From IMG/VR virus record IMGVR_UViG_2802429228_000006: a stretch of DNA of 47,939 nucleotides, one strand, 5' to 3'. Source of the stretch: a virus (lineage: Duplodnaviria > Heunggongvirae > Uroviricota > Caudoviricetes). Each line of letters begins with the position of its first letter. The stretch's first letter is position 1. This document shows, one piece after another, positions 1 through 47,456 of the stretch. Made by a program: the position numbers and the translations under genes. The notes below the pieces were generated by a model. The model did no database searches, was not told where the DNA came from, and saw only the letters and a list, made by a program, of their open reading frames with translations.

Positions 1-1092
<1,092 letters not shown>

Positions 1093-1924
1093 TTATTGTG
1101 ATCAAAAACAATATTTTATTAACATATGGTAAGGTGAGTTATAGATGCTTTTTTAGAGAAATAATTATTTAAAATAATAAGTTAGTGATGGTTATAGGAG
1201 GTGAGTATTGGGTGTGATTTCAAACTTCAAAACAAATGTGTCCTGCGATTTAATACACGATTGAGTTAATTTGAAATAACCTGTTGTAAACAGGTGAGTT
1301 TTAGTTCTTCACCTGTTTGGCAGGGGGGAGAATAATACGTAGTCTCCATACATTATGTAAGTATCCCGCATAATCGTGCCATTCACATTTAGAGACCCTT
1401 TTGCATTTCAGAAGAGCAACGTCCCCCTTGATTAAGGATAGCGTTGCATCGACCCATTGAACTCAGAGCTCATAACAGACATTCATTTTTTATGGCTGAA
1501 AGGCATTCGTGGCTGGTTGGTATATGGAAGCTGTGAACGAAAAGAATGGTGCTTGTTGAGGGGATAGATGAAGCACAGCCAAATTAAGCAGATGAAAAAA
1601 TAAAAAAGCCCGCATAAGCGGACTTCTATGTCACTAAAGAGCTGCGGCTCCTTTGCGTATCCTTTTTTGTCTCCTCACCGTCTGGTCGGTGTCTTACTGA
1701 GACTGCTAACTTCCTGTTTTTGTTGGTGTTGTTCTTACACCGTCTAATCATGATTGGCTGGCGGAGTTTGAATAAATATTATATTTATTTGATTTTTAAC
1801 GATTTTGTTTAATTCAGTTTTTGTGCGTATACCTAATTGTATACCAATGGCTGTAAGTTAATGTGAAATTAAAGCGCATTTTTACTTGGATTGATGCTAT
1901 ATCGTACAGGAAAAAAATTTTTTT

Positions 1925-2210
1925 CGAAAGAACTGTTCACACTGTTCACCTTTCTGTTTTCTCCTTTTCTTTCAGTATGATAGATGGTGAATAATGGGTG
2001 AAGGGTGAACATTCGATTCTTCACCTCCGGCATTCTGCCGATGTGACTTGTGCAGGGGATTAATCCTCCGCACTGAAATCACACAGGGAGAAAAAAGTTT
2101 TTTTTGATTTGATTGTTCACACTGTTCACCTTTCGTTTTTCTCTTTTAATTTCAGTGTGATAACGGGTGAATATACGGTGAAGGGTGAACAGTGGATTGT
2201 TCACCTGCGG
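1925..2210. repeat. crr-like iteron cluster: two ~180-bp direct repeat units, each with TGTTCACC/GGTGAACAG octamers in both orientations
   Basis: Near-identical blocks ...ttgttcacactgttcacctttc...ggtgaagggtgaaca... at about 1925-2030 and 2105-2210, immediately downstream of alpha. This is where P4 crr lies. Confidence 0.6.
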
Positions 2211-2264
2211 GGGATATCGGGATAAAAAAAGACCGGCAGATGCCGGTCAGGTGGGTCATGAGGG

Positions 2265-4598
2265 TCAGGTTGTTGCAGGGTCGTCACATTTTGGCAGCCA
2301 GTCGCCGTAGCTTTCCTCTTTCAGCGTCAGGTTGGTCTGTATCCCCTGTTTGGTATGGCGCTTCTCGTAATTCAGTCCGTATTCCTTCAGCATCACCGGC
2401 AGCCCCAGCCCGAACATTTTCAGACTGAGTACATTCCGGTAGCCGTTTGCCTCCATGTAGGCCAGATAGGCGTGATAGAGGTATTTACGGTAATTACGCG
2501 GGATGATACTGGCGTTCCCCATATACATGCCGCTGGTCTGCGGCAGGGTTTCCAGATAGCCGATAAAATCAAACGTCGGGTCGGCATCCCGTTTGATGTT
2601 CAGTGCCTCGTCTGAGTTCTGCTGGGACTGAAGCAGTGACCGGGCGAGCATCGGGTCGCTGAATTTCTGCATCAGGTGACGCACGATGACCGCCAGCTCG
2701 CGGGTGATTTTGTCCTTAAGCTGCGGGTCGCGCTCCTGCGGGGCTATCTGTTCCGGGAAGTGAATAATCACCCGCCGGCGTGACACGCCGCCGCTGCGGT
2801 CGGTGAAGCGCATCGGGTTATTGTTCACGGCCAGAATCACCGCCGGGATATGCGTGGAGTACGCATCCCGGTATTTCGGGTCCACGGACACCGCATCGCC
2901 GCCGGTGATGGCCTTGAGTCCGGCACCGTCGCCGCTCCATTTTTCCTGGTCCGGCAGGCGTATCAGTGAGAAGCCAGTTAACGCGGCACGTTCACGCGGG
3001 GATTCCAGCGTCTCGATGGTGGCCGACGTGGCGTTATCCTCCCCGGCCAGCAGGGTGGCGATTTCGGCCATGATACTTTTGCCGCTGCCGCCGGGACCGG
3101 TCACCTCCAGAAAGAGCTGCCAGTCGTAGCGGTTTGCCAGCACCATAAACAGTGCGGCCAGAATCACGTCGCGTTTTTCCGCACGGCCACCGGCGGCACG
3201 GTCAAGCCAGCGCCAGAACGCGGGGGCGTGGTTTTCCAGCGTTTCCCCTTCCACCGGCGGGGTGAAATCCACATCGCACAGGGTGCGCATCCAGTGTGAC
3301 GGACTGTGCGGGTGGAACGTGCCGTTCTGCGTGTCGAGCACGCCGTTACGAAAGCCAATCAGGCGGCGGGAGGGGGCTTCCTGCTGCGGAATAATCAGCT
3401 TCAGGGTGTCCACCACGGAGGCCACCTTCCCGGAGGAGAACGGCGCGCGCAGACGCTGAAACAGCCCGGCCACATCCCGGGCAAAGTCCTGTGGCGGCAG
3501 CACCTTCCAGACACCATTTTCATAGCGGGACAGAAGCTGGCCGTTGGCATCGACCGCGAGCGCCTCGCCGTAATGCTCATAGATACGCATGGCCTTTTCG
3601 CTGGTACTCATGGCGGAAAACTCCGCTTCGCTCATGGTGTCGAACGGGCTTTCAGCCGGTGGCCGGATGGCATCATAAATGGCCTTACGGGTGGCTTCCC
3701 CGCCGTACTGCGTGAAGGCATCATTCCAGTCACCGAAGACCGGCGGCAGGGCAACAACACCTTCACACGCATCTGCGGCTGCGGCGGCTTTTTTCTGGCC
3801 GTCACCGCTGAGGTCACGGTCTGCGGCAAGGACAATCTGACAGGCCGGATGCTTCTGCCGGGCAAGGCTGGCCAGAGAAAGGAGGTTCACGGAAGAAAGC
3901 GCCACCATCACCGTTTCACCGGTCAGGTGATGCACGGTAAGTGCGGTCGCGTATCCCTCCGCTATCCACAGACGTTTTCCGGCCTGATTCTGTCCTTCAA
4001 GGGTGTGACAGGTGCCCCTGACCTGTCCGCCTTTCAGGGTGCGCTTACGGCCGTCAGCACTGATTAACTGAAGGTTAACCAGTTCGCCGCTGTCGTCATA
4101 CAGTGGCACCACAAGGTCACCGGCACGCCAGCTCACGCCACCGGCTCTGTGTGTGCCGGTCAGCATCCGGCATTCCCGGCCGGGAAAGCCCTTGCGGGTC
4201 AGGTAGGCGTTACCGGTTCCGGGACGGGTTTTCGCCATCAGGGTTTGTGCCAGTGCGGCTGCGTTCTTCCGGGCAGCGTCTGTTTCAGCACCGGCGGCAG
4301 CCGTCACTGCCGGGTCAGCCGGGGGCAGGCTGCCGGTCACGGCAGCCACCTTTGCGGCCGCGTCGGACGGGGAAACACCAAACACCTTTTCAACCAGTTT
4401 CAGGCCGTCACCGGCACCACACTGATTGCAGTACCAGGTGCCGCGCCCCTCCCTGTCATCAAAACGGAAGCGGTCACTCCCGCCACAGACCGGACAGGGC
4501 TGATGACGGTTTTTCAGCACCTGAATCCCCAGCGCCGGGAGAATACGCGGCCAGTGGCCGAGCGCATGGCTGACGGTGGCGGTTACGTTCATTTTCAT
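2265..4598 (-). CDS. alpha: P4-type alpha protein (primase/helicase replication protein)
   Basis: 777-aa ORF with an N-terminal CxxC...CxxC zinc-binding primase-like region and P4 alpha-like sequence throughout; AAGGAG RBS upstream of the ATG. Confidence 0.9.
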   Translation of the reverse strand: MKMNVTATVSHALGHWPRILPALGIQVLKNRHQPCPVCGGSDRFRFDDREGRGTWYCNQCGAGDGLKLVEKVFGVSPSDAAAKVAAVTGSLPPADPAVTAAAGAETDAARKNAAALAQTLMAKTRPGTGNAYLTRKGFPGRECRMLTGTHRAGGVSWRAGDLVVPLYDDSGELVNLQLISADGRKRTLKGGQVRGTCHTLEGQNQAGKRLWIAEGYATALTVHHLTGETVMVALSSVNLLSLASLARQKHPACQIVLAADRDLSGDGQKKAAAAADACEGVVALPPVFGDWNDAFTQYGGEATRKAIYDAIRPPAESPFDTMSEAEFSAMSTSEKAMRIYEHYGEALAVDANGQLLSRYENGVWKVLPPQDFARDVAGLFQRLRAPFSSGKVASVVDTLKLIIPQQEAPSRRLIGFRNGVLDTQNGTFHPHSPSHWMRTLCDVDFTPPVEGETLENHAPAFWRWLDRAAGGRAEKRDVILAALFMVLANRYDWQLFLEVTGPGGSGKSIMAEIATLLAGEDNATSATIETLESPRERAALTGFSLIRLPDQEKWSGDGAGLKAITGGDAVSVDPKYRDAYSTHIPAVILAVNNNPMRFTDRSGGVSRRRVIIHFPEQIAPQERDPQLKDKITRELAVIVRHLMQKFSDPMLARSLLQSQQNSDEALNIKRDADPTFDFIGYLETLPQTSGMYMGNASIIPRNYRKYLYHAYLAYMEANGYRNVLSLKMFGLGLPVMLKEYGLNYEKRHTKQGIQTNLTLKEESYGDWLPKCDDPATT

Positions 4599-4612
4599 GG
4601 TGTTGTTCTCCT

Positions 4613-4933
4613 TCAGTGCAGTACCGGCGCTTTTATGTGACGGGCACAGAGTTCATCCATCACAACCAGCCCGAGAAAGGACAGCGACGGCGCGGCCTTC
4701 AGGGGGCCGGATTCCATTAAATCTTCCAGCAGGGCACAGGCTATCTGACGCCCTTTTTCCTCACCGTGCTGGCGCAGATAAAAGCCTTCCAGCTCAGCGG
4801 CGATGGCCGCCTCCAGTGATTCAAGGGTGAGATGCGGGTAGCGGTGCTGACGTTCGCACACGGTCAGCCAGGCACAGGCGACAGCGCGACGGTAAAGGGC
4901 AGCGCGTAAGACGGGCGGTAAGGGTGTTTTCAT
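4613..4933 (-). CDS. Hypothetical P4-family early-operon protein (106 aa)
   Basis: ORF with a GGGAGG RBS, co-oriented and tightly packed upstream of alpha. Confidence 0.55.
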
Positions 4934-5068
4934 TTGCTTTCCTCCCTGTGACAGATGACAGCATTCCGTGCCGGTTGCATTAACTGATAAGGCATATCTG
5001 CGTCTCCTGAAGACGTGCGTATCCCTGCGCGAATACGCACATTTAATTTTTCGGGGGTCGTTTTTTAA

Positions 5069-5524
5069 TTACAGATAATTGCGGTAACTGTTATCCGGGG
5101 TGGTTTCCGGGTCAGGCTCCGTGCGGGGGATTTCCCGCCATTCCCGCGCCACCGGTGCCGCCCGGCTGACCGGAACAGGGGCCTGCGGGTAAATATCCAG
5201 ATATTTCTCCCGCCATTTCTGTAATTCCGGGTCTCCGGCCATTTCTTTCAGTACCGCATGCCGGTTTACGGGGCTGCGTTTAAACAGGTCAGGACGGTCA
5301 CAGGTAAATTCCCGCAGAAAACGCCCCAGCGGGATGTCTGTGGTGCGCCCGTCTGCGAGGATACGCACAAGGATACTGAATTTACGGCGGTACGGGTTCC
5401 AGACAATGTCCGGGCAGCGGTACGGCATTTCCCACGGAATACCGTCTTCCAGAATGCCGACCACGGCCACATCGGGAAAACCGGCAGAACGGTAAATCTC
5501 ACCGGGCTGGGGAAAATCAAACAT
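5069..5524 (-). CDS. P4 orf151-like protein (151 aa)
   Basis: Exactly 151 codons in the position P4 orf151 occupies upstream of alpha; GGGGAG RBS. Confidence 0.55.
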   Translation of the reverse strand: MFDFPQPGEIYRSAGFPDVAVVGILEDGIPWEMPYRCPDIVWNPYRRKFSILVRILADGRTTDIPLGRFLREFTCDRPDLFKRSPVNRHAVLKEMAGDPELQKWREKYLDIYPQAPVPVSRAAPVAREWREIPRTEPDPETTPDNSYRNYL

Positions 5525-5804
5525 GCGTCTTGTCTCCCCGGTCTTTCTGCTGGGCGAGAAAATCGCGGCACAGGCCTTTGGCTTTCAGCTCATTCAGCAC
5601 AAAATCAATATCTTCATTCAGGTAGCTGAAAATATGCGGAATGTAGAGCTGATGCAGGCCGGAGAGTTCACGGTGAATCAAATCACCCCCAACAAACTGG
5701 GATACGGCGCTGGCGCGGTTGAGCTTATGGTAAGCCTCAATGCTGAGGTGTTCACGGGCGTCATGACGCGCTGAGACGGTCTGAGGGGCTTTTTTATTAC
5801 GCAC
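5517..5804 (-). CDS. Putative derepression (epsilon-like) protein, about 95 aa, GTG start
   Basis: The C-terminal part of ORF-track entry 5517..6050 has coding character. GGAGG followed by GTG defines a short gene; the long upstream extension is implausible. Confidence 0.4.
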
Positions 5805-5994
5805 GGGACACCTCCACCACCGGCAGACGGGCAGCAAGGGAGAGCACATAGTCACGGACAAGGGAACGGCGGGCGCTGCGTTCATCACCGGCGACGGTGC
5901 GAAGCATGCAGATACGGGGATGACGGTCTGCGCGACGGACAGCCGCAAACACAAAGACAAATTCAGGGTGTGAGGGGGTAAGGGTTGTAGCCAT
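5797..5994 (-). CDS. Small early ORF (65 aa), possible Icd/Kil-like host cell-division inhibitor
   Basis: Internal ATG of ORF 5797..6396 preceded by AAGGAGG; begins [16 protein letters not shown]. Sits immediately downstream of the seqC-like element. Confidence 0.4.
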
Positions 5995-6002
5995 GATGGC
6001 AG

Positions 6003-6255
6003 CCTCCTTGAAGTAACAGTTACAGCTACCACTGGAGTTCCTACGCTCATGGGTGGTAGCCCGGACGGGGGTAGGAATACCGGCCTTCAAGGAAACCGGC
6101 CAGCCCGAAGGCTGCCCCGCCCGGACCACCATTATCTGACAGAGGCTACGGTTTAAAAACCACAGCCAGAAAAACAGGTGTGCCGAAGCAACGACGTAAA
6201 AAAAGACGCATGGCGCGTCATATGTCGCCTTGAAGTAACTCGGGTTCCTACGCCC
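6003..6255 (-). promoter_or_regulatory. P4-type RNA immunity region: two similar sequences flanking a central complementary element (candidate CI-like RNA around 6070..6095)
   Basis: CCTTGAAGTAAC...GTTCCTACGC occurs at about 6005-6045 and 6228-6255. The central stretch ggtaggaataccggccttcaagg contains the reverse complements of both half-motifs (GTAGGAA, CTTCAAGG). Confidence 0.4.
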
Positions 6256-6347
6256 GGCTGCCGATTTTGCGACAGCGGAAAAACTATATCCGCAAATGCC
6301 GGAAAAAGGCAAGCCAGAAAAAGGGACTTTTTGCAGAACAGGCATCA

Positions 6348-6614
6348 TCATGCGTCGTACCCCCGTTTGCGTCCGGCAATGCGCCCGGCCATCCATGCGG
6401 TGACTTCAGAGTGCAGCCAGGCCACATTTTTACCGCCAAGACTCACCTGTGGCGGAAATTCCCCCTTACGGATGAGTTCATAGATGGTCGAGCGTGACAG
6501 GCCGCACAGGTGCATCACTTCCGGCAGACGTAAAAAACGCTCCTGCGTGATGTCCGGCAGCGGCATCAGTGGCGTCACAGGGGCGGGAGACGGGGAAGAA
6601 AAAACAGCTTGCAT
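6348..6614 (-). CDS. AlpA-family phage transcriptional regulator (short HTH protein)
   Basis: RLPEV...[17 protein letters not shown]...W...SEV..W matches the AlpA-type HTH signature. The true start may be an internal Met. Confidence 0.65.
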
Positions 6615-6892
6615 CGGGCTACCTCGTTAATGTCCATACAGCACCGGATAAGTCCGTCCGGCGTCGGGTAGCGCTTTATTTTGTGAATATTTTCAGCAGA
6701 CGCAACAGGGGGGATTTGTTCCGGTAGCCTTACAATGGCTGTGTGTTTTTTATCCATCTGGACTGGAAGGGTCTCAAAGGGTTCTGAAGGACCTGGAATT
6801 TTTTATAGTGAAATACAAATTGTTTTTTCTTATTTATTTCAGTGAATTAATAAAAATAAAAAGTAATAAACAGCACAAAAAGTCCATGAGCG

Positions 6893-6997
6893 GGTGAACA
6901 GTGGTGAACAGACGGTGAACAGTCATCGCTGCGATTGTTCACCCTTTAACTTACTGTATTGCTTATCTTTTTTCTTATGGTGAACAGAGGTGAACAG
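6893..6997. repeat. ori-like iteron cluster: five direct GGTGAACAG copies plus one inverted copy
   Basis: gggtgaacagtggtgaacagacggtgaacag...attgttcaccc...ggtgaacagaggtgaacag. Same octamer as the crr cluster and about 4.9 kb from it, as for P4 ori versus crr. Confidence 0.6.
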
Positions 6998-7076
6998 TAA
7001 AATATAAAAAAAACAAACAGTAAGCCGGTTTTTCCTGCGACCTTTTCCTGGCTTGCCGGTCTGAGGATGAGTCTCC

Positions 7077-7094
7077 TGTGTCAGGGCTGGCACA
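7077..7094 (+). promoter_or_regulatory. Delta/Ogr-type activator site (TGT-N12-ACA) of a P_sid-like late promoter
   Basis: tgtgtcagggctggcaca lies about 75-90 bp upstream of the sid ATG. Confidence 0.5.
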
Positions 7095-7166
7095 TCTGCA
7101 ATGCGTCGTGTTGTTGTCCGGTGTACGTCACAATTTTCTTAACCTGAAGTGACGAGGAGCCGGAAA

Positions 7167-7901
7167 ATGTCTGACAACACCATCCCTGAATATCTGCAAC
7201 CCGCGCTGGCACAACTGGAAAAGGCCAGAGCCGCCCATCTTGAGAACGCCCGCCTGATGGATGAGACCGTCACGGCCATTGAACGGGCAGAGCAGGAAAA
7301 AAATGCGCTGGCGCAGGCCGACGGAAACGACGCTGACGACTGGCGCACGGCCTTTCGTGCAGCCGGTGGTGTCCTGAGCGACGAGCTGAAACAGCGCCAC
7401 ATTGAGCGCGTGGCACGCCGGGAGCTGGTACAGGAATATGACAATCTGGCCGTGGTGCTGAATTTTGAACGTGAACGCCTGAAAGGGGCGTGTGACAGCA
7501 CGGCCACCGCCTACCGGAAGGCACATCATCACCTTCTGAGTCTGTATGCAGAGAATGAGCTGGAACACGCCCTGAATGAAACCTGTGAGGCGCTTGTCCG
7601 GGCAATGCATCTGAGCATCCTGGTACAGGAAAATCCGCTCGCCAACACCACCGGCCATCAGGGCTACGTCGCACCCGATAAAGCTGTCATGCAGCAGGTG
7701 AAATCATCGCTGGAACAGAAAATAAAACAGATGCAAATCAGCCTCACCGGCGAGCCGGTTCTCCGGCTGACCGGACTGTCAGCGGCAACACTCCCGCACA
7801 TGGATTATGAGGTGGCAGGCACACCGGCACAGCGCAAGGTGTGGCAGGACAAAATAGACCAGCAGGGAGCAGAGCTTAAGGCCAGAGGACTGCTGTCATG
7901 A
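7167..7901 (+). CDS. sid: Sid, P4 capsid size-determination (external scaffold) protein
   Basis: 244-aa product from MSDNTIPEYL with a GAGGAG RBS. First gene of a sid-delta-psu operon with P4 sizes. Confidence 0.8.
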   Translation: MSDNTIPEYLQPALAQLEKARAAHLENARLMDETVTAIERAEQEKNALAQADGNDADDWRTAFRAAGGVLSDELKQRHIERVARRELVQEYDNLAVVLNFERERLKGACDSTATAYRKAHHHLLSLYAENELEHALNETCEALVRAMHLSILVQENPLANTTGHQGYVAPDKAVMQQVKSSLEQKIKQMQISLTGEPVLRLTGLSAATLPHMDYEVAGTPAQRKVWQDKIDQQGAELKARGLLS

Positions 7902-8398
7902 TTTACTGCCCGTCGTGTGGACATGTTGCTCACACCCGTCGCGCACATTTCATGGACGATGGCACCAAGATAATGATTGCACAGTGCCGGAATATTTATT
8001 GCTCTGCGACATTTGAAGCGAGTGAAAGCTTTTTCTCTGACTGTAAAGATTCAGGAATGGAATACATTTCAGGCAAACAGAGATACCGCGATTCACTGAC
8101 GTCAGCCTCCGGCAGCATGAAACGCCCGAAAAGAATGCTTGTTACCGGATATTGTTGTCGGAGATGTAAAGGCCTTGCACTGTCAAGAACATCGCGGCGT
8201 CTGTCTCAGGAAGTCACCGAGCGTTTTTATGTGTGCACGGATCCGGGCTGTGGTCTGGTGTTTAAAACGCTTCAGACCATCAACCGCTTCATTGTCCGCC
8301 CGGTCACGCCGGACGAACTGGCAGAAAGCCTGCATGAAAAACAGGAACTGCCGCCAGTACGCTTAAAAACACAATCATATTCGCTGCGTCTGGAATGA
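7898..8398 (+). CDS. delta: Delta, late-gene transcriptional activator (tandem Ogr-like zinc fingers)
   Basis: 166 aa with two CxxC...C..C Ogr-type modules (MIYCPSCGHVAHTRRAH... and ...CCRRCKGLALSRTS...CTDPGCGLVF); start overlaps the sid stop. Confidence 0.85.
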   Translation: MIYCPSCGHVAHTRRAHFMDDGTKIMIAQCRNIYCSATFEASESFFSDCKDSGMEYISGKQRYRDSLTSASGSMKRPKRMLVTGYCCRRCKGLALSRTSRRLSQEVTERFYVCTDPGCGLVFKTLQTINRFIVRPVTPDELAESLHEKQELPPVRLKTQSYSLRLE

Positions 8399-8471
8399 GG
8401 GCTGCCGGTTAATACCGGCCGTCGCCGCACACCGTATTTTTATTCTTCAGCATGATGAGAAAGAGATAACG

Positions 8472-9044
8472 ATGGAAAGCACAGCCTTACAGCAGGCCTT
8501 TGACACCTGTCAGAATAACAAAGCAGCATGGCTGCAACGCAAAAATGAGCTGGCTGCGGCCGAACAGGAATATCTGCGGCTTCTGTCCGGGGAAGGCAGA
8601 AACGTCAGTCGCCTGGACGAATTACGCAATATTATCGAAGTCAGAAAATGGCAGGTGAATCAGGCCGCCGGTCGTTATATTCGTTCGCATGAAGCCGTTC
8701 AGCACATCAGCATCCGCGACCGGCTGAATGATTTTATGCAGCAGCACGGCACAGCACTGGCGGCGGCACTGGCACCGGAGCTGATGGGCTACAGTGAGCT
8801 GACGGCCATTGCCCGAAACTGTGCCATACAGCGTGCCACAGATGCCCTGCGTGAAGCCCTTCTGTCCTGGCTTGCGAAGGGGGAAAAAATTAATTATTCC
8901 GCACAGGATAGCGACATTTTAACGGCCATCGGATTCAGGCCTGACGCGGCTTCGGTGGATGACAGCCGTGAAAAATTCACTCCTGCGCAGAACATGATTT
9001 TTTCGCGTAAAAGTGCGCAACTGGCATCACATCAGTCTGTGTAA
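8472..9044 (+). CDS. psu: Psu, polarity suppression protein (Rho antagonist / capsid decoration)
   Basis: 190 aa; the MESTALQQAFDTCQNNKAAWLQRKNELAAAEQEYLRL N-terminus is recognisable as P4 Psu. Confidence 0.9.
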   Translation: MESTALQQAFDTCQNNKAAWLQRKNELAAAEQEYLRLLSGEGRNVSRLDELRNIIEVRKWQVNQAAGRYIRSHEAVQHISIRDRLNDFMQQHGTALAAALAPELMGYSELTAIARNCAIQRATDALREALLSWLAKGEKINYSAQDSDILTAIGFRPDAASVDDSREKFTPAQNMIFSRKSAQLASHQSV

Positions 9045-9080
9045 AACTCCCCGAAAATCCGCCCGTTTTTACTGAAAAAA

Positions 9081-9119
9081 GCCATGCATCGATAAGGTGC
9101 ATGGCTTTGCATGCGTTTT
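9081..9119 (+). terminator. Hairpin plus T-rich tract downstream of psu
   Basis: gccatgcatcgataaggtgcatggc followed by tttgcatgcgtttt. Confidence 0.45.
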
Positions 9120-9208
9120 CCTGCCTCATTTTCTGCAAACCACGCCATTCCCGGCGCGGTCTGAGCGTGTCAGTGCAACTGCATTAAAACCGCCCCGCAA
9201 AGCGGGCG

Positions 9209-9227
9209 GGCGAGGCGGGGAAAGCAC
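9209..9227. other. cos site, P2/P4 type (19-nt cohesive-end sequence)
   Basis: ggcgaggcggggaaagcac matches the P2/P4 cohesive end as I recall it, in the P4 position just past psu. Confidence 0.7.
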
Positions 9228-9315
9228 TGCGCGCGCATTGAATTAATTTATTAATAATTAAACTAGAATATGGAGTGGAGAAGTAAGAAACTTATAACAC
9301 TAAGGATAAGAGGAT

Positions 9316-11403
9316 ATGGGCAAAATGCAAAAAACTGAGGTCGAAGTATTTTCTGAGTTGGAGTCACTGTGTACATCTCATGGTTTTATTCATTGTTTAG
9401 CATTATTAAGCTGCATAAATAATATTACTATCTATGAAGACAAACTTAATTTTAAAGATGTGCAACATCTATACGAAAAAGAACGATTGATAAGAACCGA
9501 GATTTCTACGGTTGCAGGATTGTTGTTAAAGTCTGAAATTAATGTAAATTATCCCGGCGAAGAAGCACTGTTGAAATTATACGAAGATGTGAATGCATCT
9601 TTGAATATTTTACATAGTGCTATGCTTTTGACTGAGAAGAATGGCGATTACAACAATGCGATTATAAAAGAGAGTATATTTTATGCTGCTGAATCTGCTT
9701 ATGACTTTCAATATTTAGATATGGCGGAGGAAAAATACTCCTTAGATAATTCTTGGTTTTTAGAGAATATGGGGTTTACATGCATCGATATGGTGTCAGT
9801 AGGCCGGTGTATAGAGTCTATAATAGGGAGGCAAATTAATGATTTTTTAAATGGTGGTCAAGGGATTTTTAATGAGTGGCTATTAAATGCTTACGAGTTG
9901 TCAATTAATGAAATAGTTACTGAGACAGGTATTTCTTATGTGAAGGTAAGAACTATCATTGATTTGTTTTCGTCAGGTGGAAATTCAAATGAAACCTTTC
10001 AGTCTGTGAGTGACTTTAATATCTTTAATGCTAGACCCATAATCCGCACTGGAGATAGGTATTATTGTTTTTCAGCCTATTCATTGGCTCAGTCAATATA
10101 TGAAACACCATTTTTTTGGATGAATAATGACAAAAAATATAGACCTATATCTGCACAACATAGAGGACAATTTGTAGAAGATTATGTATATAGAAAAATG
10201 ACATCGATTTTTGGAATTGAGAATGTATTCAAAAATGTATATATAGTGAACTCTAATAATGAGACGCTAGGTGAAATAGATGTACTGGTATCTTTTTCTG
10301 ATTCGGTAATAATTTATCAGGCAAAATCTAAGAAGTTAACTATTGAAGCTAGAAAGGGAAATGGGAATGCTATACAAAAAGATTTTCAAGGTGCTATACA
10401 AGATGCTTATGATCAGGGGGTTTCTTGTGCTCAATTCATCGTATCTGGCGCAAGCCTAACTGATCAAAATTTCAACCGATTGAATCTCAACTCTTCAGTC
10501 TCTAGATGTTATATTGTTCCAATTATATCTGAGCATTATCCGTCTTTGAGTTTTCAGGTTCGTCAGTATTTGAATGTTAAAATAACAAATGAAATTTACC
10601 CGCCATTTATAATGGATGTTTTCCTTTTAGATGTTCTAACAGAGTTTTTAAATACGCCGCTATATTTTTTATCTTACATTGATCGTCGTTCGAAATATAA
10701 CATGAGAGTATTTTCTTCTCATGAATTGACAGTCTTTTCTTTGCATCTAAAACAGAATCTATGGATTGACAATGAATGTGATATGTTTATGTTGCATGAT
10801 GATATATGTGCTGATCTCGATATTGCGATGTTAGTCCGCAGGAAGGGGATCTCTGGTAAACATACTCCAAGTGGTATTCTAACACTCCATCAGGATGGCT
10901 TTATTAGAAAAATAATTAACTCATTGGAATCGGAAAATCATAAATTGGCGATGGATTTAGGTTTGCTTTTGCTTTCTTTGGATAGTGATGCTATTGAAAA
11001 CATCAATAAAATAGCTAATAAAACGATATTTTTATCTTCACTTGATAAGAAACACCATGATTTTTCAACTGTCATTGGGGATACGGGTATTACAGTTCAT
11101 TGTAATTACTATAAGAAAGATGTCGCGGGAAAAAAGTTGTATGAACATTGCATAAAAAGAAAATATATAACTAAATGTAAAAAATGGATTGGTATACATG
11201 TTAGACCAATAACATATGATATAAATTATGGAATTATGTTGGATTTTGAATGGGAATATTCTTCTGATATTGAAAGTATTATCACTCCTACTCCATTACA
11301 AAATACTTTGGTTAATGTTAAGGGAAATATGACTCAAGCAAAACGACCGGGTAGAAATGAACCATGTTTTTGTGGTAGCGGTAAAAAATGTTGTTTACGT
11401 TAA
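9316..11403 (+). CDS. Cargo protein (695 aa): putative PD-(D/E)xK/NERD-like nuclease with C-terminal SEC-C-type Cys motif; candidate anti-phage factor
   Basis: AT-rich ORF between cos and int. GEIDVLVSFSDSVIIYQAKSK fits a D..E.K nuclease core; the C-terminus CFCGSGKKCC fits a SEC-C metal-binding motif; no P-loop seen. Confidence 0.75.
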   Translation: MGKMQKTEVEVFSELESLCTSHGFIHCLALLSCINNITIYEDKLNFKDVQHLYEKERLIRTEISTVAGLLLKSEINVNYPGEEALLKLYEDVNASLNILHSAMLLTEKNGDYNNAIIKESIFYAAESAYDFQYLDMAEEKYSLDNSWFLENMGFTCIDMVSVGRCIESIIGRQINDFLNGGQGIFNEWLLNAYELSINEIVTETGISYVKVRTIIDLFSSGGNSNETFQSVSDFNIFNARPIIRTGDRYYCFSAYSLAQSIYETPFFWMNNDKKYRPISAQHRGQFVEDYVYRKMTSIFGIENVFKNVYIVNSNNETLGEIDVLVSFSDSVIIYQAKSKKLTIEARKGNGNAIQKDFQGAIQDAYDQGVSCAQFIVSGASLTDQNFNRLNLNSSVSRCYIVPIISEHYPSLSFQVRQYLNVKITNEIYPPFIMDVFLLDVLTEFLNTPLYFLSYIDRRSKYNMRVFSSHELTVFSLHLKQNLWIDNECDMFMLHDDICADLDIAMLVRRKGISGKHTPSGILTLHQDGFIRKIINSLESENHKLAMDLGLLLLSLDSDAIENINKIANKTIFLSSLDKKHHDFSTVIGDTGITVHCNYYKKDVAGKKLYEHCIKRKYITKCKKWIGIHVRPITYDINYGIMLDFEWEYSSDIESIITPTPLQNTLVNVKGNMTQAKRPGRNEPCFCGSGKKCCLR

Positions 11404-11410
11404 GGACAAT

Positions 11411-11429
11411 GGCGCGTTAAAAACGCGCC
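11411..11429. terminator. Bidirectional terminator between the cargo gene and int
   Basis: Perfect palindrome ggcgcgttaaaaacgcgcc flanked by T-runs. Confidence 0.5.
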
Positions 11430-11430
11430 T

Positions 11431-12624
11431 TTAGTTATTTTTTTTTACTTTGTTTCCCCACCATTCCATGAGTTCAATTCGTTGCTCTAAGTATGTAGAT
11501 CTATTGTATGCTCTCCGAACTTCATTTTTATCACTGTGAGCTAAAGCCGCTTCAATAACATCTGCATTGAAACCAGCTTCATTCATTGCAGTGCTTGCAA
11601 TAGAGCGAAGGCCATGAGCAACTAGTTTTCCGCCAAAACCAATGCGTTTTAAAGCTGCATTAGCAGTTTGGCTATTCATTGGCTGTTTAGGGTCATTTCT
11701 ACTTGGAAAAATATGTTCACGATGGGCACTAATAGGCTTCATTACTTCCAAAATATCTAAAGCCTGACGTGATAAAGGAACAATGTGTTCACGTTTGGCT
11801 TTCATCCGTTCAGGGGGAATAGTCCAGAGTTTTGTATCAAGATCGATCTCTGCCCAACAAGCACCAGAGGCTTCAGAAGGGCGTACAAGCGTCAAGAGTT
11901 GCCATTCAATGAGACAGCGAGTCGGAACAGATAGGTTTGACATAGCTAAAGAACGCATCAGCTTCGGCAATTCTTCTGGCCGCAATGTTGGCATGTTTTG
12001 CTTTTTTGGCTTCTCAAAGGCCATCCCAACCCCAGATGCTGGATTGGCATCAATCAGACCAGTGTTTACAGCGTAAATCATTATCTCGTTAATTCGCTGT
12101 ATCAGTCGACGTACAGTTTCAAGAGCCCCACGAGCTTTGATTGGCTCAAGAGCTTCGACTAGCGTCCGGGCTTTGATTTGCTGGACGGGAATCTCTCCAA
12201 TGGCTGGGAATATGTCTTTTTCCAGCGAACGCCATATATCTTTAGCGTAATCAGGGGAAACGCTTTTGCTTTTTATCTGAAACCAGTTGGTCGCAACAGT
12301 CGAAAAAATACTGTCTAGAGCTATCTGTTGTTGTTCTTCGATAAATTCAGCTTGAACTTGTGGGTCTATACCATTAGCCAACAAAGCAAGGTAATCCGCT
12401 CTTAACCGTCGAGCATCAGCAAGTGAAAGAGCGGGGAAAGCACCTATCCCCATCATTGTTCTTTTTTTTGTAGCTGGTCGTTGATAGCGAAATCGCCAAA
12501 GTTTCTTACCGCTTGTTTTCACTATCAGAAAGAGGCCTTCGCCATCATGCAACGTCAGATCCTTTTCTAATGCTTTAGCGCGCAGAACTTCTGTATTGGT
12601 TAGGGGGCGTGTTGTTCTTGCCAC
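11431..12624 (-). CDS. int: P4-type tyrosine integrase (IntA-like)
   Basis: 397-aa product with a P4/CP4-57 integrase-like sequence and a C-terminal catalytic region (HGLR..., ...AHSD...RAY). Adjacent to the att repeat. Confidence 0.9.
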   Translation of the reverse strand: MARTTRPLTNTEVLRAKALEKDLTLHDGEGLFLIVKTSGKKLWRFRYQRPATKKRTMMGIGAFPALSLADARRLRADYLALLANGIDPQVQAEFIEEQQQIALDSIFSTVATNWFQIKSKSVSPDYAKDIWRSLEKDIFPAIGEIPVQQIKARTLVEALEPIKARGALETVRRLIQRINEIMIYAVNTGLIDANPASGVGMAFEKPKKQNMPTLRPEELPKLMRSLAMSNLSVPTRCLIEWQLLTLVRPSEASGACWAEIDLDTKLWTIPPERMKAKREHIVPLSRQALDILEVMKPISAHREHIFPSRNDPKQPMNSQTANAALKRIGFGGKLVAHGLRSIASTAMNEAGFNADVIEAALAHSDKNEVRRAYNRSTYLEQRIELMEWWGNKVKKNN

Positions 12625-12645
12625 TTTGGCCGCTCCTTCATGAAT

Positions 12646-12697
12646 TGGTATACGCGTTTAGGCATATATCCTATCGTATACCTAAACGTATACCAAT
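12646..12697. promoter_or_regulatory. GTATACC box cluster between int and att (candidate integrase arm sites)
   Basis: ttggtatacg...cgtatacctaaacgtataccaat includes a 10-bp inverted repeat (ttggtatacg / cgtataccaa). The same box pair recurs at 1826..1848 at the other end of the element. Confidence 0.35.
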
Positions 12698-12737
12698 AAT
12701 CACTGGATTTAGCTGGATATCCTCGGACAACAGTAGA

Positions 12738-12773
12738 CACAAAAAAGCCCGCAGAGCTTGTGTCATGCGGGCT
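12738..12773 (-). terminator. Rho-independent terminator (minus strand) downstream of the ssrA-end copy
   Basis: Stem agcccgca/tgcgggct with a T6 run on the minus strand. Confidence 0.45.
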
Positions 12774-12808
12774 TTCAGGATTTCTCCGGACGTATCCGGA
12801 AGAGCAAG

Positions 12809-12853
12809 TGGTGGAGCTGGCGGGAGTTGAACCCGCGTCCGAAATTCCTACAT
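12809..12853 (-). repeat. 45-bp direct repeat of the ssrA 3' end (att core copy)
   Basis: tggtggagctggcgggagttgaacccgcgtccgaaattcctacat is identical to 46879..46923, the 3' end of intact ssrA, then diverges. Confidence 0.85.
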
Positions 12854-12969: not shown

Positions 12970-14193
12970 TTATTTTAAATATTCATACTTCATCATTTGA
13001 TGAATAAGGAGTTCAACTTTTCTAAAAGTGGTATTTTCATAATGTTCAACAAGGGATTCATCAAAGTCTTCAATCCATCCTTTTGCGGGATTATAGGTCG
13101 AAAAATTAAAATTATTTTTGTATAGATAGGGGGTGGCTTCTAGTGTACTAAACACAGTCCAGGAAACAGGGTTTGTAACTCTAAATATTTTTTTTAAAAC
13201 AGGACAGTGGGTATCATTGGTTTCAACTATGTTTTCTATTTTTGGGGGGATAATTACATTAATCCCAATATCGCTATCTTTTTGGTTTAATATCTTTGTT
13301 GATCGATACGATATCCCTGATATATTTTTGTTTCTGTCACTACTAATCCATTGCATTAATAGGTTTGGTATTATGTATTCTTTATTAAAACTTGCGTTTT
13401 CATTATCTTTTGTATAGTTACATGCAAGGACTAAAGGCCATGCAATCAACTTTGAAATTTTATCATTAATTTGATCCATGAAATTATCATTATTTAGATC
13501 GTAATCATCATCTGAACCTTGTTCGAATGAATACCAAAGATCTCCCGGTTTTGTACGAAGTGCAGATGTTAAATTGTACCCAAGATCTAAAATTCTTATA
13601 TTTGAATTTTCTTTATCGGATATGAAGGAAGATATGTAAAGTTTATCAAAGTCAGGTTTTCCCATTTCTTGCCAACATACAAATATTGATGTTCCAAGAT
13701 ATAAACATGGAAGACCGGATACAGAAAATCTTTGTGCGCTAACTAAATGTCTATTTTTAAATGGTATATGAAATAATTCTTCTCTTTGTTTTAGGATGCA
13801 CTCACTTTTCCTTACGCGAAATAAAGGGGTGTGTGGGTTGCATAATTTAGTTAGAGGAACAGTCATCTTATAAAGATGAGTATGCATTGATGACTTGGTA
13901 ATTGCCAAATCGAATTTTTTATAAGCTTCTTTAACATTTCCTATTAAAAATAGCTTAAGAGTTTCTATTATTTTATCAGATAAATATATTATTGATTTTG
14001 TGCGAATCTTTACTTGTTTAATTATCTCGTTGTCAGGATATTTATTTCTAATGGAGTCAATTAATTCTAAATAGCACTCGACTCTCTTAGAAAAGTCAGA
14101 AATTAGTTTTCCCTCGGCAATGAATGGGGGTTGCAATAGTTCATGTTTTTTTAGTTCTTCCGATATCTGTTCTAATTCGATAATGTTGCGCAT
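12970..14193 (-). CDS. RES-domain protein (407 aa), candidate NAD-targeting toxin / abortive-infection effector
   Basis: AT-rich ORF between att and int. LFRVR...QRFSVSGLPCLYLGTSIFVCWQE matches the RES signature (R...GRWN..G.P.LY......E). No adjacent partner gene. Confidence 0.6.
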   Translation of the reverse strand: MRNIIELEQISEELKKHELLQPPFIAEGKLISDFSKRVECYLELIDSIRNKYPDNEIIKQVKIRTKSIIYLSDKIIETLKLFLIGNVKEAYKKFDLAITKSSMHTHLYKMTVPLTKLCNPHTPLFRVRKSECILKQREELFHIPFKNRHLVSAQRFSVSGLPCLYLGTSIFVCWQEMGKPDFDKLYISSFISDKENSNIRILDLGYNLTSALRTKPGDLWYSFEQGSDDDYDLNNDNFMDQINDKISKLIAWPLVLACNYTKDNENASFNKEYIIPNLLMQWISSDRNKNISGISYRSTKILNQKDSDIGINVIIPPKIENIVETNDTHCPVLKKIFRVTNPVSWTVFSTLEATPYLYKNNFNFSTYNPAKGWIEDFDESLVEHYENTTFRKVELLIHQMMKYEYLK

Positions 14194-14197
14194 GTGC

Positions 14198-15217
14198 TTA
14201 ATCCATCAAGGTTGCTAATGGGTTTTTAGTTACTGCATCTTCAAGATGATCTGGGGAAAAATGAGCGTAAATCATCGTCATTTTTATATCGGCATGTCCA
14301 AGAATATCGCGCAGTACCAGTATATTTCCACCGTTCATCATAAAATGACTGGCAAATGTATGGCGCAGAACATGGGTACATTGGCCTTCTGGTAGTTCTA
14401 AACCGGCTCGCTTTACTGCACGCTCAAAGGCTTTTCTGCATGGGGTGAATAACTTCCCCCTATTCTTAGGCAGTTCTTCATATAAATCCTTAGAAATAGG
14501 CACAGTTCGGTTTTTCTTGCCTTTGGTCTTGGTATAAGTGATACGGTATTTTGATACCTGATGACTCTGCAGGTTTTCGGCTTCGCTCCAGCGTGCGCCG
14601 GTGGCCAGGCATATTTTTGCAATCAAAAGCAGGCTGGAGCTTTGAGAATCGGCGCAGGCATCCAGCAGACGTTTAATTTCTTCCGGGGTCAGGAACGCCA
14701 ATTCACTCTCAGCAATTTTAAATGTTGGCAGCCCAGCAAGCGGGTTGGGGGCTGACCAGTGGCCCAGCTTTTTCAGTGTACCAAAAACAGATGATAGATT
14801 GCGCTGTTCAAGGTTTACCGTGCGGGGCTTAACGGGCGACATAAACGTGCCATCTTCATTTCGTACTTCACCTTTTAACCGTGCTTCGCGGTATTTCGTA
14901 AAGTCACCGGCTGTCAGTTCTGAAGCGATGGGATCGCCTAGACCATTACAGATAATTCTAAGTTTCGCTATGAGGCGCTTGGGGTCTGCGAGTGTTTGAC
15001 CATACAGGGAATACCACTGCTCAATTAATTCTGATAGGTGTCGCCGATCTTCCTTTTCCCCCAGCCATGGTTTTTTGTTCACTTCTTCCATTGTGAAGCT
15101 TTCAAAAGCAATGGCTTCGCCTTTCGTAGCAAATTGCTTACGCACGCGCTTGCCATTGCGTCCATTGGGATAGCACTCGCACAACCATTTACCGTTTGGC
15201 TGTTTTCTGACAGTCAT
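14198..15217 (-). CDS. int: P2/186-family tyrosine integrase
   Basis: 339 aa with a C-terminal catalytic region (ARWSEA..., HVLRHTFAS, ...MTMIYAH); position next to the repressor. Confidence 0.9.
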   Translation of the reverse strand: MTVRKQPNGKWLCECYPNGRNGKRVRKQFATKGEAIAFESFTMEEVNKKPWLGEKEDRRHLSELIEQWYSLYGQTLADPKRLIAKLRIICNGLGDPIASELTAGDFTKYREARLKGEVRNEDGTFMSPVKPRTVNLEQRNLSSVFGTLKKLGHWSAPNPLAGLPTFKIAESELAFLTPEEIKRLLDACADSQSSSLLLIAKICLATGARWSEAENLQSHQVSKYRITYTKTKGKKNRTVPISKDLYEELPKNRGKLFTPCRKAFERAVKRAGLELPEGQCTHVLRHTFASHFMMNGGNILVLRDILGHADIKMTMIYAHFSPDHLEDAVTKNPLATLMD

Positions 15218-15219
15218 GT

Positions 15220-15852
15220 TTAGATACTCTTTATTACTTTGACTGCACGCCCAATAACTTCCACATCATCGGCAGAGCACTCGAAAGACGCTTCATCTTG
15301 ATTTACTACAATCTTATTGCCGGGAATCCGCATGATTTTTGCAATAATAATCATTCCATCAATATTGATAAGCCAGAATCCATTGCTGACTTGTTTAACT
15401 GATTTATCGATGAGATAACAATCAGTAGGGGTTTCTAAGAACATCGATTCTTCATAATCTGCAGGTAATATGCTGTGGTCTAGGAAAATCTCTTCATCAA
15501 TACTGAGTTGTCCATTTTCCAAGGTTCCTTTAGGAATAGATGGAGTTATGAGTTTGGATAACGGTTTAATTGCTTGTTTGTTCTCGTTATGAGATCTTTT
15601 CTCAGACTCGTATCCTTCTTTCATGCTTCCCTGTCCAGTGGCTAACCAAAGTAACGAAACACCGGTTTCTAGTGCACACTGAATTATCCAGTCAGCAGGA
15701 AAACTGTCACGTAACACTCTGTTTGCCATAGTACTTTTTGAGACATTCAGGTGCTCGCTTAATGCCTGCTTAGTTGTGAATCCATAAGCCTCAAGCAGCC
15801 TCTCAATAGCTGCCTTACCTCCCGTATCGGAACCCATTCTGATGTTTAACAT
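15220..15852 (-). CDS. cI: 186-type CI immunity repressor
   Basis: 210 aa with an N-terminal HTH; divergent from an Apl-like gene across an operator-bearing intergenic region; GGAG RBS. Confidence 0.7.
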   Translation of the reverse strand: MLNIRMGSDTGGKAAIERLLEAYGFTTKQALSEHLNVSKSTMANRVLRDSFPADWIIQCALETGVSLLWLATGQGSMKEGYESEKRSHNENKQAIKPLSKLITPSIPKGTLENGQLSIDEEIFLDHSILPADYEESMFLETPTDCYLIDKSVKQVSNGFWLINIDGMIIIAKIMRIPGNKIVVNQDEASFECSADDVEVIGRAVKVIKSI

Positions 15853-18903: not shown

Positions 18904-21314
18904 GTCATGCCGATATGAACAACTGCTGCGGCTTTAACGAGGCTGCCGCAGCGTTCTCATGGAACAGCCCGAAAAAGGCCATTAACCCTTATCTGGACCC
19001 GGCGGAAGTCGCGCCGGTTTCTGCGCTTTCAAACCTGATCACTCTGTACGCTGCCGATAACGAGCAGGAACAGCTGCGCCGCGAGGCACTGAGTGATCAG
19101 GCCTGGGAGCGTTATTTCTTTAATGAATCCCGTGATCCTGTCCAACGCGAAATGGAGCAGGATAAGCTCATTAGCCGGGCAAAGCTGGCGCATGAGCAGC
19201 AGCGTTTTAATCCAGACATGGTCATTCTGGCGGACGTTAACGCCCAGCCTTCCCATATCAGCAAGCCGCTGATGCAACGTATTGAATACTTCAGCAGCCT
19301 GGGCAGGCCAAAGGCTTATTCCCGCTATTTGCGTGAGACGATTAAGCCATGTCTGGAACGACTGGAGCATGTACGCGACTGTCAGCTATCCACTTCTTTT
19401 CGCTTTATGGCAAGCCATGAAGGGCTGGACGGCCTGCTGATCCTGCCTGAAATGAGTCAGGATCAGGTGAAGCGCCTGTCTACCCTTGTCGCCGCGCATA
19501 TGAGCATGTGCCTTGATGCAGCTTGTGGTGATTTGTATGCCACCGATGACATTAAGCCAGAAGAAATCCGCAAAACATGGGAAAAGGTGGCAGCGGAAAC
19601 CCTGCGTCTGGATGTTATCCCGCCTGCGTTTGAGCAACTCCGTCGGAAAAGAAACCGCCGTAAACCCGTGCCTTATGAACTCATTCCGGGTTCGCTGGCG
19701 CGTATGTTATGCGCCGACTGGTGGTATCGGAAATTATGGAAGATGCGTTGCGAATGGCGGGAAGAGCAGTTGCGTGCTGTTTGCCTGGTCAGCAAAAAAG
19801 CATCTCCCTATGTCAGCTATGAAGCCGTGATGCATAAACGTGAGCAGCGCCGTAAGTCGCTGGAGTTTTTCCGTTCTCATGAACTGGTGAACGAAGACGG
19901 CGACACGCTGGATATGGAAGACGTGGTAAACGCCAGCAGCAGCAACCCTGCGCATCGCCGCAATGAGATGATGGCCTGTGTTAAAGGTCTGGAGCTTATC
20001 GCGGAAATGCGCGGTGACTGCGCCGTTTTCTACACCATCACCTGTCCGTCACGTTTCCATTCCACGCTAAATAACGGCAGGCCCAACCCGACCTGGACAA
20101 ATGCGACGGTAAGACAAAGCAGTGATTATCTGGTCGGTATGTTTGCTGCATTTCGTAAGGCGATGCACAAAGCCGGATTACGCTGGTATGGCGTGCGGGT
20201 GGCTGAGCCGCATCATGACGGTACAGTTCACTGGCACCTGTTGTGTTTTATGCGCAAAAAAGATCGCCGCGCCATTACTGCTTTGTTGCGTAAGTTTGCC
20301 ATTCGTGAAGACCGCGAGGAGCTGGGTAATAACACGGAACCACGCTTTAAGTCTGAGCTGATAAACCCGCGCAAAGGTACGCCAACAAGCTACATCGCGA
20401 AATACATCAGTAAGAACATTGACGGGCGTGGTCTGGCTGGCGAGATCAGCAAGGAAACGGGTAAATCCCTGCGTGATAACGCTGAATACGTTAATGCCTG
20501 GGCGTCTCTGCATCGTGTTCAGCAATTCCGCTTCTTTGGCATTCCGGGGCGTCAGGCTTACCGTGAACTGCGATTGCTGGCTGGTCAGGCGGCAAGGCAA
20601 CAGGGGGACAAAAAAGCAGGTGCGCCGGTACTGGATAACCCGCGCCTTGATGCCATCCTAGCCGCTGCTGATGCTGGTTGTTTTGCCACCTACATCATGA
20701 AGCAGGGCGGCGTACTGGTTCCCCGCAAATATCACCTCATCAGAACCGCTTATGAAATCAACGAAGAGCCGACCGCCTATGGCGATCACGGTATTCGTAT
20801 TTATGGCATCTGGTCACCCATTGCAGAGGGCAAGATCTGCACTCATGCGGTGAAGTGGAAAATGGTTCGTAAGGCCGTTGACATTCAGGAGGCGGCAGCC
20901 GACCAGGGCGCTTGCGCCCCTTGGACTCGTGGCAATAACTGTCCCCTTGCTGAAAATTTGAACCAACAGGAGAAAGATAAATCAGCTGATGGGGACCCCA
21001 GAACGGACATTACCAGCATGGATGACAAGGAGTTGCACGATTACCTGCACAGTATGAGCAAAAAAGAGCGCCGGGAACTGGCAGCAAGGTTACGCCTGGT
21101 GAAACCGAAACGGCGTAAAGACTACAAACAGCGAATTACAGACCATCAGCGACTGCAGCTCGTGTATGAGCTGAAGTCCAGAGGATTTGATGGCAGCGAG
21201 AAAGAGGTCGATTTACTCCTTCGCGGAGGCAGTATTCCGTCAGGAGCAGGCCTGCGTATCTTCTATCGGAACCAGCGTTTGCAGGAAGATGATCAGTGGC
21301 GGAACCTGTATTAA
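18900..21314 (+). CDS. A: Replication initiation endonuclease (P2 gene A family, rolling-circle initiator)
   Basis: 804-aa product of the size and position of P2/186 gene A, following the early operon. Confidence 0.85.
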
Positions 21315-46878: not shown

Positions 46879-47242
46879 TGGTGGAGCTGGCGGGAGTTGA
46901 ACCCGCGTCCGAAATTCCTACATCCTCGGTACTACATGCTTAGTCAGTCTTTACATTCGCTTGCCAGCTGCGGACAGACACGCCACTAACAAACTAGCCT
47001 GATTAAGTTTTAACGCTTCAACCCCAGGCAAGGCTTCCACGCGATCTCTTTTGGGTTTGACCTCTCTTGATCCCCGTCCTAAGAGCGGAGGCTAGGGAGA
47101 GAGGGCTCTAAGCAGGTTATTAAGCTGCTAAAGCGTAGTTTTCGTCGTTTGCGACTATTTTTTGCGGCTTTTTACGAGGCCAACCGCCCCTCGGCATGCA
47201 CCTTGGGTTTCGCAAATCCCGTCGAATCCAGAATCAGCCCCA
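46879..47242 (-). ncRNA. ssrA: tmRNA (SsrA, 10Sa RNA)
   Basis: The reverse complement reads GGGGCTGATTCTGGATTCGACGGGATTTGCG...GCAAACGACGAAAACTACGCTTTAGCAGCT...GGTTCAACTCCCGCCAGCTCCACCA, including the ANDENYALAA tag-coding region. Ends may be off by 1 nt. Confidence 0.95.
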
Positions 47243-47456
47243 ATGTGTAACGGTGAGTATACCAGATTTGTGAGCGCCATGACCAGCCCCAATGGCGACA
47301 TCGTCAAGGATTTAGCGCCTGCGTAGCATGACTTTTATTCGATTAAGCATGGGGATGACTACATCTGTGTTAAATATGATTATCAACAAGATGTTCATTC
47401 GCGCCACCGGAGAGGGGAGGCGCGGTGAGGGGTTGATCAGTATATGTTATGTAGGT

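Follow-up and report, generated by a model that had tools for sequence, protein, structure and literature searches.

Paired GTATACC boxes inside both ends of an ssrA-integrated P4-like satellite: probable arm-type binding sites of its integrase

Two near-identical pairs of GTATACC boxes lie just inside the ends of the P4-like satellite found in the window (the whole stretch of 47,939 nucleotides analysed here), and a further inverted copy is located close to the start of the satellite's integrase gene. Judged from sequence comparison, these boxes are very probably the arm-type binding sites of the satellite's own P4-family tyrosine integrase (Int). This reading agrees with the first-pass annotation, which had recognised an arrangement expected for such sites, and it is supported by the Arm-DNA-bind_3 domain in Int, by a geometry resembling that of P4, and by co-variation between the box sequence and the arm-binding domain in related elements.

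The window originates from an E. coli chromosome and runs from glaH (1-1083, minus strand) through ssrA, the tmRNA gene. Downstream of ssrA, the P4-like satellite and a P2/186-like prophage (95% identical to Klebsiella phage Kp4849-2) are arranged in tandem, so that a single attachment locus accommodates both the satellite and a potential helper; of the ssrA 3' copies, the middle one, 45 bp in length, serves as att for the satellite as well as for its P2-like neighbour (Table 1). From crr to cos the satellite is 97.4% identical to phage P4 (window 1911-9208 versus P4 4291-11624), and in addition to the primase and vis genes it carries sid/delta/psu, a 695-aa cargo ORF and the integrase gene. 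This cargo ORF (9316-11403, plus strand) is situated between psu and the satellite int, and a second one of 407 aa (12970-14193, minus strand) between the P2-like int and its att, both of them known positions of defence hotspots. Neither ORF gave a Pfam or PADLOC match; homologues of the 695-aa ORF bear the RefSeq label 'SEC-C metal-binding domain-containing protein'.

Table 1. Coordinates of the boxes, att junctions and neighbouring features in the window, and of the corresponding sites in P4 and CP4-57
Feature	Position	Strand	Remarks
P4-like satellite	~1755-12823		~11 kb
Left att junction, TG + GCTGGCGG	1755-1764		Eroded remnant of ssrA 3' end
A+T-rich spacer, 61 nt	1765-1825		Left junction to distal pair
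Box 1 of putative distal (crr-side) arm, CGTATACCTAA	1826-1836	+	
Box 2 of putative distal arm, TGTATACCAAT	1838-1848	+	12 nt start to start from box 1
crr	1910-2210		Repeat family
Alpha primase gene	2265-4598		
vis (excisionase/RDF)	6348-6614	-	87/88 residues identical to P4 Vis
Satellite integrase, 397 aa	11431-12624	-	Arm-DNA-bind_3, central and catalytic domains
Int-proximal inverted box, CGTATACCAAT	12644-12654	-	20-30 nt upstream of int start codon
Decayed fourth box, TATATGCCTAA on minus strand	12658-12668	-	Close relatives: TGTATACCTAA
Int-proximal direct pair, box 1, CGTATACCTAA	12675-12685	+	Relatives: ~-58 (-53 to -58)
Int-proximal direct pair, box 2, CGTATACCAAT	12687-12697	+	Relatives: ~-70 (-65 to -70)
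Stretch of 111 nt	12698-12808		Proximal box pair to core
Right att junction, TGGTGG A GCTGGCGG	12809-12823		ssrA 3' end, part of 45-bp copy 12809-12853
P2/186-like prophage	~12854-46878		Between satellite and intact ssrA
Integrase of P2/186-like prophage	14198-15217		
CI repressor of P2/186-like prophage	15220-15852		
ssrA (tmRNA), intact	46879-47241	-	Chromosomal target; 3' end supplies att core
P4 attP, inverted 12-mer at int start codon	3915-3926		
P4 attP, tandem pair	3942-3965		
P4 attP, core	4078-4097		112 nt from tandem pair
P4 attP, second tandem pair	4151-4174		53 nt beyond core
P4 crr	4291		
CP4-57 int-side boxes, inverted TAGGCCCAA and TTGGGCCTAT/ATGGGCCTAA			
CP4-57 far-side boxes, TTGGTCCCAT/TTGGTCCTAA			60 nt from junction

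The sequence and geometry of the boxes can be observed directly. Their unit is CGTATACCWAW, 11-12 nt long, and it occurs twice in tandem on each side with 12 nt from start to start. The left-hand CGTATACCTAA/TGTATACCAAT and the right-hand CGTATACCTAA/CGTATACCAAT form a direct repeat of 23 nt with 21 positions shared (91% identity), so that the near identity claimed earlier was borne out. The right-hand pair is indeed placed between int and att, and the extra inverted copy that had been noticed at about 12647 was recovered on the minus strand. A fourth box next to it has decayed in the window, with two of its seven core bases changed; GTATACC is present at this place, -43 from the int start, in the close relatives L007-L015, L060 and L081.

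GTATACC occurs eight times in the window as against 2.45 expected, and the two arms account for five of these (1827, 1839, 12676 and 12688, and on the minus strand 12647), indicating that the motif is concentrated at the element ends and not spread throughout the element. The exact arrangement GTATACC-N5-GTATACC is found at these two places in the window and nowhere else in it, where 0.06 matches would be expected even when up to two mismatches are allowed. Three 11-mers with one mismatch (11188-11198 on the minus strand, 15995 and 38749) were considered as additional sites and rejected, being within chance (1.65 expected), as was a GTATACC at 47257 just upstream of ssrA, likewise within chance expectation.

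It might be argued that the boxes are a chance match, a neutral duplication relic, or a replication element (iterons of the alpha protein) near crr, given that short A+T-rich words recur at random and that the left pair is only ~60 nt away from crr. However, when the 13-kb region was simulated 200 times with a first-order Markov model, just one run gave any comparable 23-mer pair (up to two mismatches), and the boxes are present in homologous elements across genera, at fixed distances. With regard to replication, the P4 alpha iteron TGTTCACC exists here as a separate and distinct repeat, located in crr and in ori1 (~6893-7012), and the GTATACC boxes lie outside crr. The region from crr to cos including the alpha gene is moreover 97% identical to P4, whereas the boxes are unlike those of P4. 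An origin by chance, duplication or replication function is thus barely credible.

The ends of the satellite were mapped by alignment of empty and occupied sites. A third copy of the ssrA 3' end of at least 11 nt was not found at the left border, and the left junction could be located only by comparison with an empty-site genome, for which 5,426 complete E. coli genomes were searched. In empty-site E. coli genomes, the segment corresponding to ~1603-1757 of the window proved to follow ssrA directly as native sequence. When the empty site of AR24.2b, the far end of CP4-57 in K-12, the satellite copy in GD33 and the window were aligned, the left junction read as chromosomal sequence ending in CATGAT, a TGGTGG remnant, GCTGGCGG, and then the element sequence AGTTTGAATAAA. 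The att core corresponds to the last ~15 nt of ssrA, TGGTGGAGCTGGCGG, to which the box sequence CGTATACCWAW bears no likeness. The distal pair is 61 nt and the proximal pair 111 nt from the respective junction, that is, both lie just inside the ends, as had been proposed from the sequence. The 61-nt spacer is poorly conserved in sequence and constant in length among relatives.

The left junction itself varies. Relatives have TGGTGG followed by GCTGGCGG, whereas the window is 4 nt short, and micro-deletions of different sizes were seen from strain to strain when the junction loci were compared (the window; L001 ~4153-4170; L002 ~4655-4675; L004 1652-1665): 2 nt in GD33, 4 nt in the window and ~10 nt in A20. 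For comparison, the left junction of CP4-57 in K-12 consists of ATTGGTGG and then GCTGGCGG. Since the presumed strand-exchange region is damaged, some copies of the satellite may no longer excise.

If the element were circularised, its right end (12625-12823) would be joined to its left end (1765-1848) to give an attP of ~260 bp. Reading from the int start, this attP would begin with two inverted boxes, one good and the other decayed, and continue with a tandem pair, 111 nt, the core formed by the ssrA 3' end, the A+T-rich spacer of 61 nt and a second tandem pair, after which crr follows. In attP the repeats thus flank the core at distances of up to ~150 bp, and in the prophage they are divided over attL and attR. 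We also observed that the 111-nt stretch contains a series of CNGGAY repeats (ctggattt, ctggatat, ctcggaca, caggattt, tccggacg and tccggaag). Such motifs are common to P4 (L006 3966-4077), CP4-57 (L005 4066-4198) and the satellite despite their differing integrases, and they are candidate sites for Vis/AlpA, IHF or another host factor. In the same stretch, a hairpin with a T-run at ~12742-12778 (minus strand) replaces the ssrA terminator.

The first-pass annotation had suggested a search for the motif in related elements. One genome per bacterial species was scanned for relatives, and 79 loci were obtained with an Int that is 71-93% identical. They belong to Enterobacterales, among them Escherichia, Kluyvera, Erwinia, Pantoea, Serratia, Rahnella, Yersinia and Photorhabdus; the ssrA 3' end is located just upstream of int in 71 of the 79, and at least 51 of them encode a P4-type primase. 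The set of boxes was recovered in 72 of the 79 loci, nearly all at equal offsets from the int start: the direct pair at ~-70/-58 and the inverted copy at ~-29 (-25 to -29 in most loci with a box of the CGTATACCWAW type). L072 has GGGCC boxes instead, similar to those of CP4-57. While this conservation is directly evident, it should be underlined that a fair degree of conservation extends over the entire region between the ssrA end and the int start, and the proximal boxes are not singled out by conservation alone.

The distal pair was scored in those elements whose far end fell inside the 10-kb flank, and it was found 7.5-11.1 kb from int. In all 11 elements with an intact att remnant CCGCCAGC, the start of the pair precedes the remnant by exactly 81 nt. 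Conservation is poor between pair and remnant, and the loci show no alignable sequence on the interior side of the pair.

The boxes of the 72 loci fall into two types, GGTATAC (T-type, 45 loci) and GGTACAC (C-type, 27 loci). The change from GGTATAC to GGTACAC is that of one subclade: each of the 27 C-type loci has GGTACAC in every proximal box, direct as well as inverted, and the distal pair, ~10 kb away, switches together with them. This concerted change is directly observed: distal and proximal types agree in 15 of 16 elements (T-type 9/9, C-type 6/7). Fisher's test gave p ~9e-4 for the agreement, a value that overstates independence because the lineages are related and the T/C split may represent one or a few evolutionary events. 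The sole mismatch, L057 from Citrobacter amalonaticus (offsets -69 and 7486), combines proximal GGTACAC with distal GGTATAC. Its distal interior resembles that of the T-type elements L012 and L015, and L057 is probably a hybrid or the product of a deletion between tandem elements.

On the lambda and P4 paradigm, the N-terminal Arm-DNA-bind_3 domain of Int (aa 8-91) would hold the boxes, while the core, at the ssrA 3' end, would be contacted by the central and catalytic domains. DNA-bending proteins, IHF for example, would then fold the arms over the core into a recombination-competent complex, joined by Vis for excision. Integration would leave one group of boxes at each prophage end, and this would explain why matching pairs appear just inside both. 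The proximal boxes, 20-75 nt upstream of the int start codon, probably have a second role as an int operator through which Int would repress its own gene. P4 offers the precedent: according to Panis et al. 2010 (PMC2951348), who cite Piazzolla et al. 2006, P4 Int binds DNA directly in the vicinity of the int promoter and so represses its own gene. Autoregulation is drawn here from this analogy because a promoter scan detected no consensus sigma-70 promoter over the proximal boxes or in the int upstream region; a weak candidate overlapping the boxes (8/12, by eye) was left out of the evidence. GTATAC is palindromic and could in principle suit a dimeric regulator, although the C-type GTACAC is not palindromic.

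One could go further and regard the boxes as nothing but a transcriptional operator for int, bound by Int or another repressor and having no part in a recombination complex. Both the closeness of the proximal boxes to the int start codon and the autoregulation reported for P4 Int would fit, but the lack of a consensus promoter in the scan does not, and neither does the distal pair. This pair is 10.8 kb from int, beside crr and with no gene start nearby; even so, its distance to the att remnant is fixed at 81 nt, and its sequence changes when that of the proximal boxes does. A role as operator only does not account for a pair with this position and this behaviour, and we consider it very unlikely.

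The reading of the boxes as arm-type sites of Int directs attention to the integrase itself. Its Pfam matches are PF13356 Arm-DNA-bind_3 (aa 8-91, 80.8 bits, E = 8e-23), PF22022 and PF00589, and aa 8-93 match the solved domains 3JTZ/3RMP and 3JU0 (E = 2.6e-16 and 2.8e-9). Its identity amounts to 37% with P4 Int and to 61% with IntA of CP4-57. In the remainder of the satellite, by comparison, the primase, like crr-to-cos as a whole, is 97% and Vis 99% identical to P4, and still the boxes are wholly different from those of P4. It follows that the boxes go with the divergent Int and not with Vis or alpha.

The comparison of T-type and C-type integrases points in the same direction. Seven alignment columns separate the two groups perfectly, and all seven are N-terminal (aa 4, 11, 13, 19, 23, 57 and 76; for example T11N, V13I, M57N and A76D from T-type to C-type), lying inside or immediately before the arm-binding domain. 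The mean identity between the groups is 0.66 in aa 1-95 as against 0.80 in the core-binding and catalytic domains, the latter value being the same as within groups. These directly observed differences indicate that the switch in the boxes tracks the N-terminal domain specifically, and this co-variation is the strongest computational evidence for the predicted reading of the boxes by that domain.

The same data bear on whether the boxes could be binding sites of the excisionase Vis, a recombination directionality factor (RDF) of the AlpA family. Typical targets of such factors are direct repeats in tandem, spaced by about one helical turn. The boxes, which follow each other in direct orientation every 12 bp in the vicinity of att, have the appearance of RDF sites, as exemplified by Apl of phage 186 (PMC7498355). 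Nevertheless, Vis differs from P4 Vis in a single residue, yet the boxes have no sequence likeness to the P4 repeats; conversely, Vis falls to ~41-80% identity across the relatives, among which the single T/C switch is the one change seen in otherwise constant boxes. As the residues that co-vary with box type are in the N-terminal domain of Int, binding by Vis appears highly improbable.

Returning to Int as the protein that very probably recognises the boxes, the T/C variants and the associated set of Arm-DNA-bind_3 residues might constitute a natural specificity switch, in which arm domains and arm sites are exchanged as matched modules by satellites that are alike in other respects. We put this forward tentatively, as an idea with somewhat less than an even chance of being right. 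If it is true, the T/C switch defines part of the DNA-recognition code of the widespread Arm-DNA-bind_3 domain, and it could keep co-resident ssrA elements from cross-reacting. A locus of Kluyvera sichuanensis (L015, ~20340-20580; int offsets 10339 and 10558) shows a T-type distal pair followed ~200 nt later by a C-type proximal arm. Two satellites of differing box type are thus placed in tandem at ssrA, and the arrangement fits the idea of avoided cross-reaction.

With regard to novelty, the claim that these sites are not annotated in such elements held in part. Two RefSeq E. coli copies of the satellite were inspected and contain no arm-site annotation, whereas the P4 record NC_001609 (X51522) does annotate 'attP arm sequence repeat' features. 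A literature search for the satellite box sequence returned unrelated primer matches only, and no paper containing it was found. The arm repeats of P4 attP have long been known and the concept is textbook knowledge; the finding is correct but ordinary, and the general view of integrase action is unchanged by it. What is gained is the full att anatomy (core, both arms and five to six boxes) of P4-like satellites that target ssrA, a widespread lineage for which genome pipelines provide no such annotation. This anatomy allows the satellites and their defence-gene cargo to be delimited exactly and shows which copies keep intact ends. The T/C co-variation adds, at modest value, a small set of candidate specificity residues for Arm-DNA-bind_3.

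Among known systems, lambda provides the general model. Its Int binds the arm-type sites P1, P2 and P'1-P'3 (Ross & Landy 1982, as cited in PMC2951348). Like the satellite enzyme as we propose it, lambda Int is a heterobivalent tyrosine integrase whose N-terminal domain engages repeats in either arm of attP (~240-260 bp), and its arm repeats differ from the core sites. It differs in that its N-terminal domain does not belong to the Arm-DNA-bind_3 family, and in the number, orientation and recognition sequence of the sites.

A relationship is also seen with the solved domains matched by aa 8-93 of the satellite Int. 3JTZ/3RMP and 3JU0 are the arm-binding domains of the HPI and HAI7 P4-like integrases. 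These enzymes belong to pathogenicity islands, unlike the satellite integrase, and these islands sit at tRNA genes. The likeness of the domains is one of sequence. The source for the HPI and HAI7 domains, Szwagierczak et al. 2009, appears in the references of PMC8138268.

P4 itself is a satellite of the same type. Its attP likewise has an inverted copy by the int start, tandem units of 12 nt, a second pair past the core and then crr, and the gaps are 112 and 53 nt as compared with 111 and 61 nt in the satellite, the 53-nt spacer of P4 also being A+T-rich. The two integrases share the same three-domain architecture. The P4 attP arm repeats were reportedly first described by Pierson & Kahn in J Mol Biol in 1987. 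There are nonetheless clear differences: the P4 box is ATGCCCCCAAT and that of the satellite CGTATACCWAW, P4 targets the tRNA-Leu gene leuX and the satellite the ssrA 3' end, the integrases are only 37% identical, and close relatives of the satellite have a second inverted box. The satellite boxes are consequently positional counterparts of the P4 arm repeats with a different specificity, and not the same sites.

CP4-57 of E. coli K-12, with its IntA and AlpA, shares with the satellite the ssrA target and the left junction sequence TGGTGG GCTGGCGG AGTCTGAA; the geometry of the boxes is the same on both arms. Its boxes are of another sequence, TGGGCCTA, reading TTGGGCCTA on the int side and TTGGTCCYA (TGGTCCYA) on the far side. 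Its proximal pair and core are separated by ~133 nt instead of 111, and CP4-57 is a 22-kb cryptic prophage whereas the satellite is 11 kb in size. Taken together, P4, CP4-57 and the satellite represent three integrase lineages that have one geometry and three box sequences.
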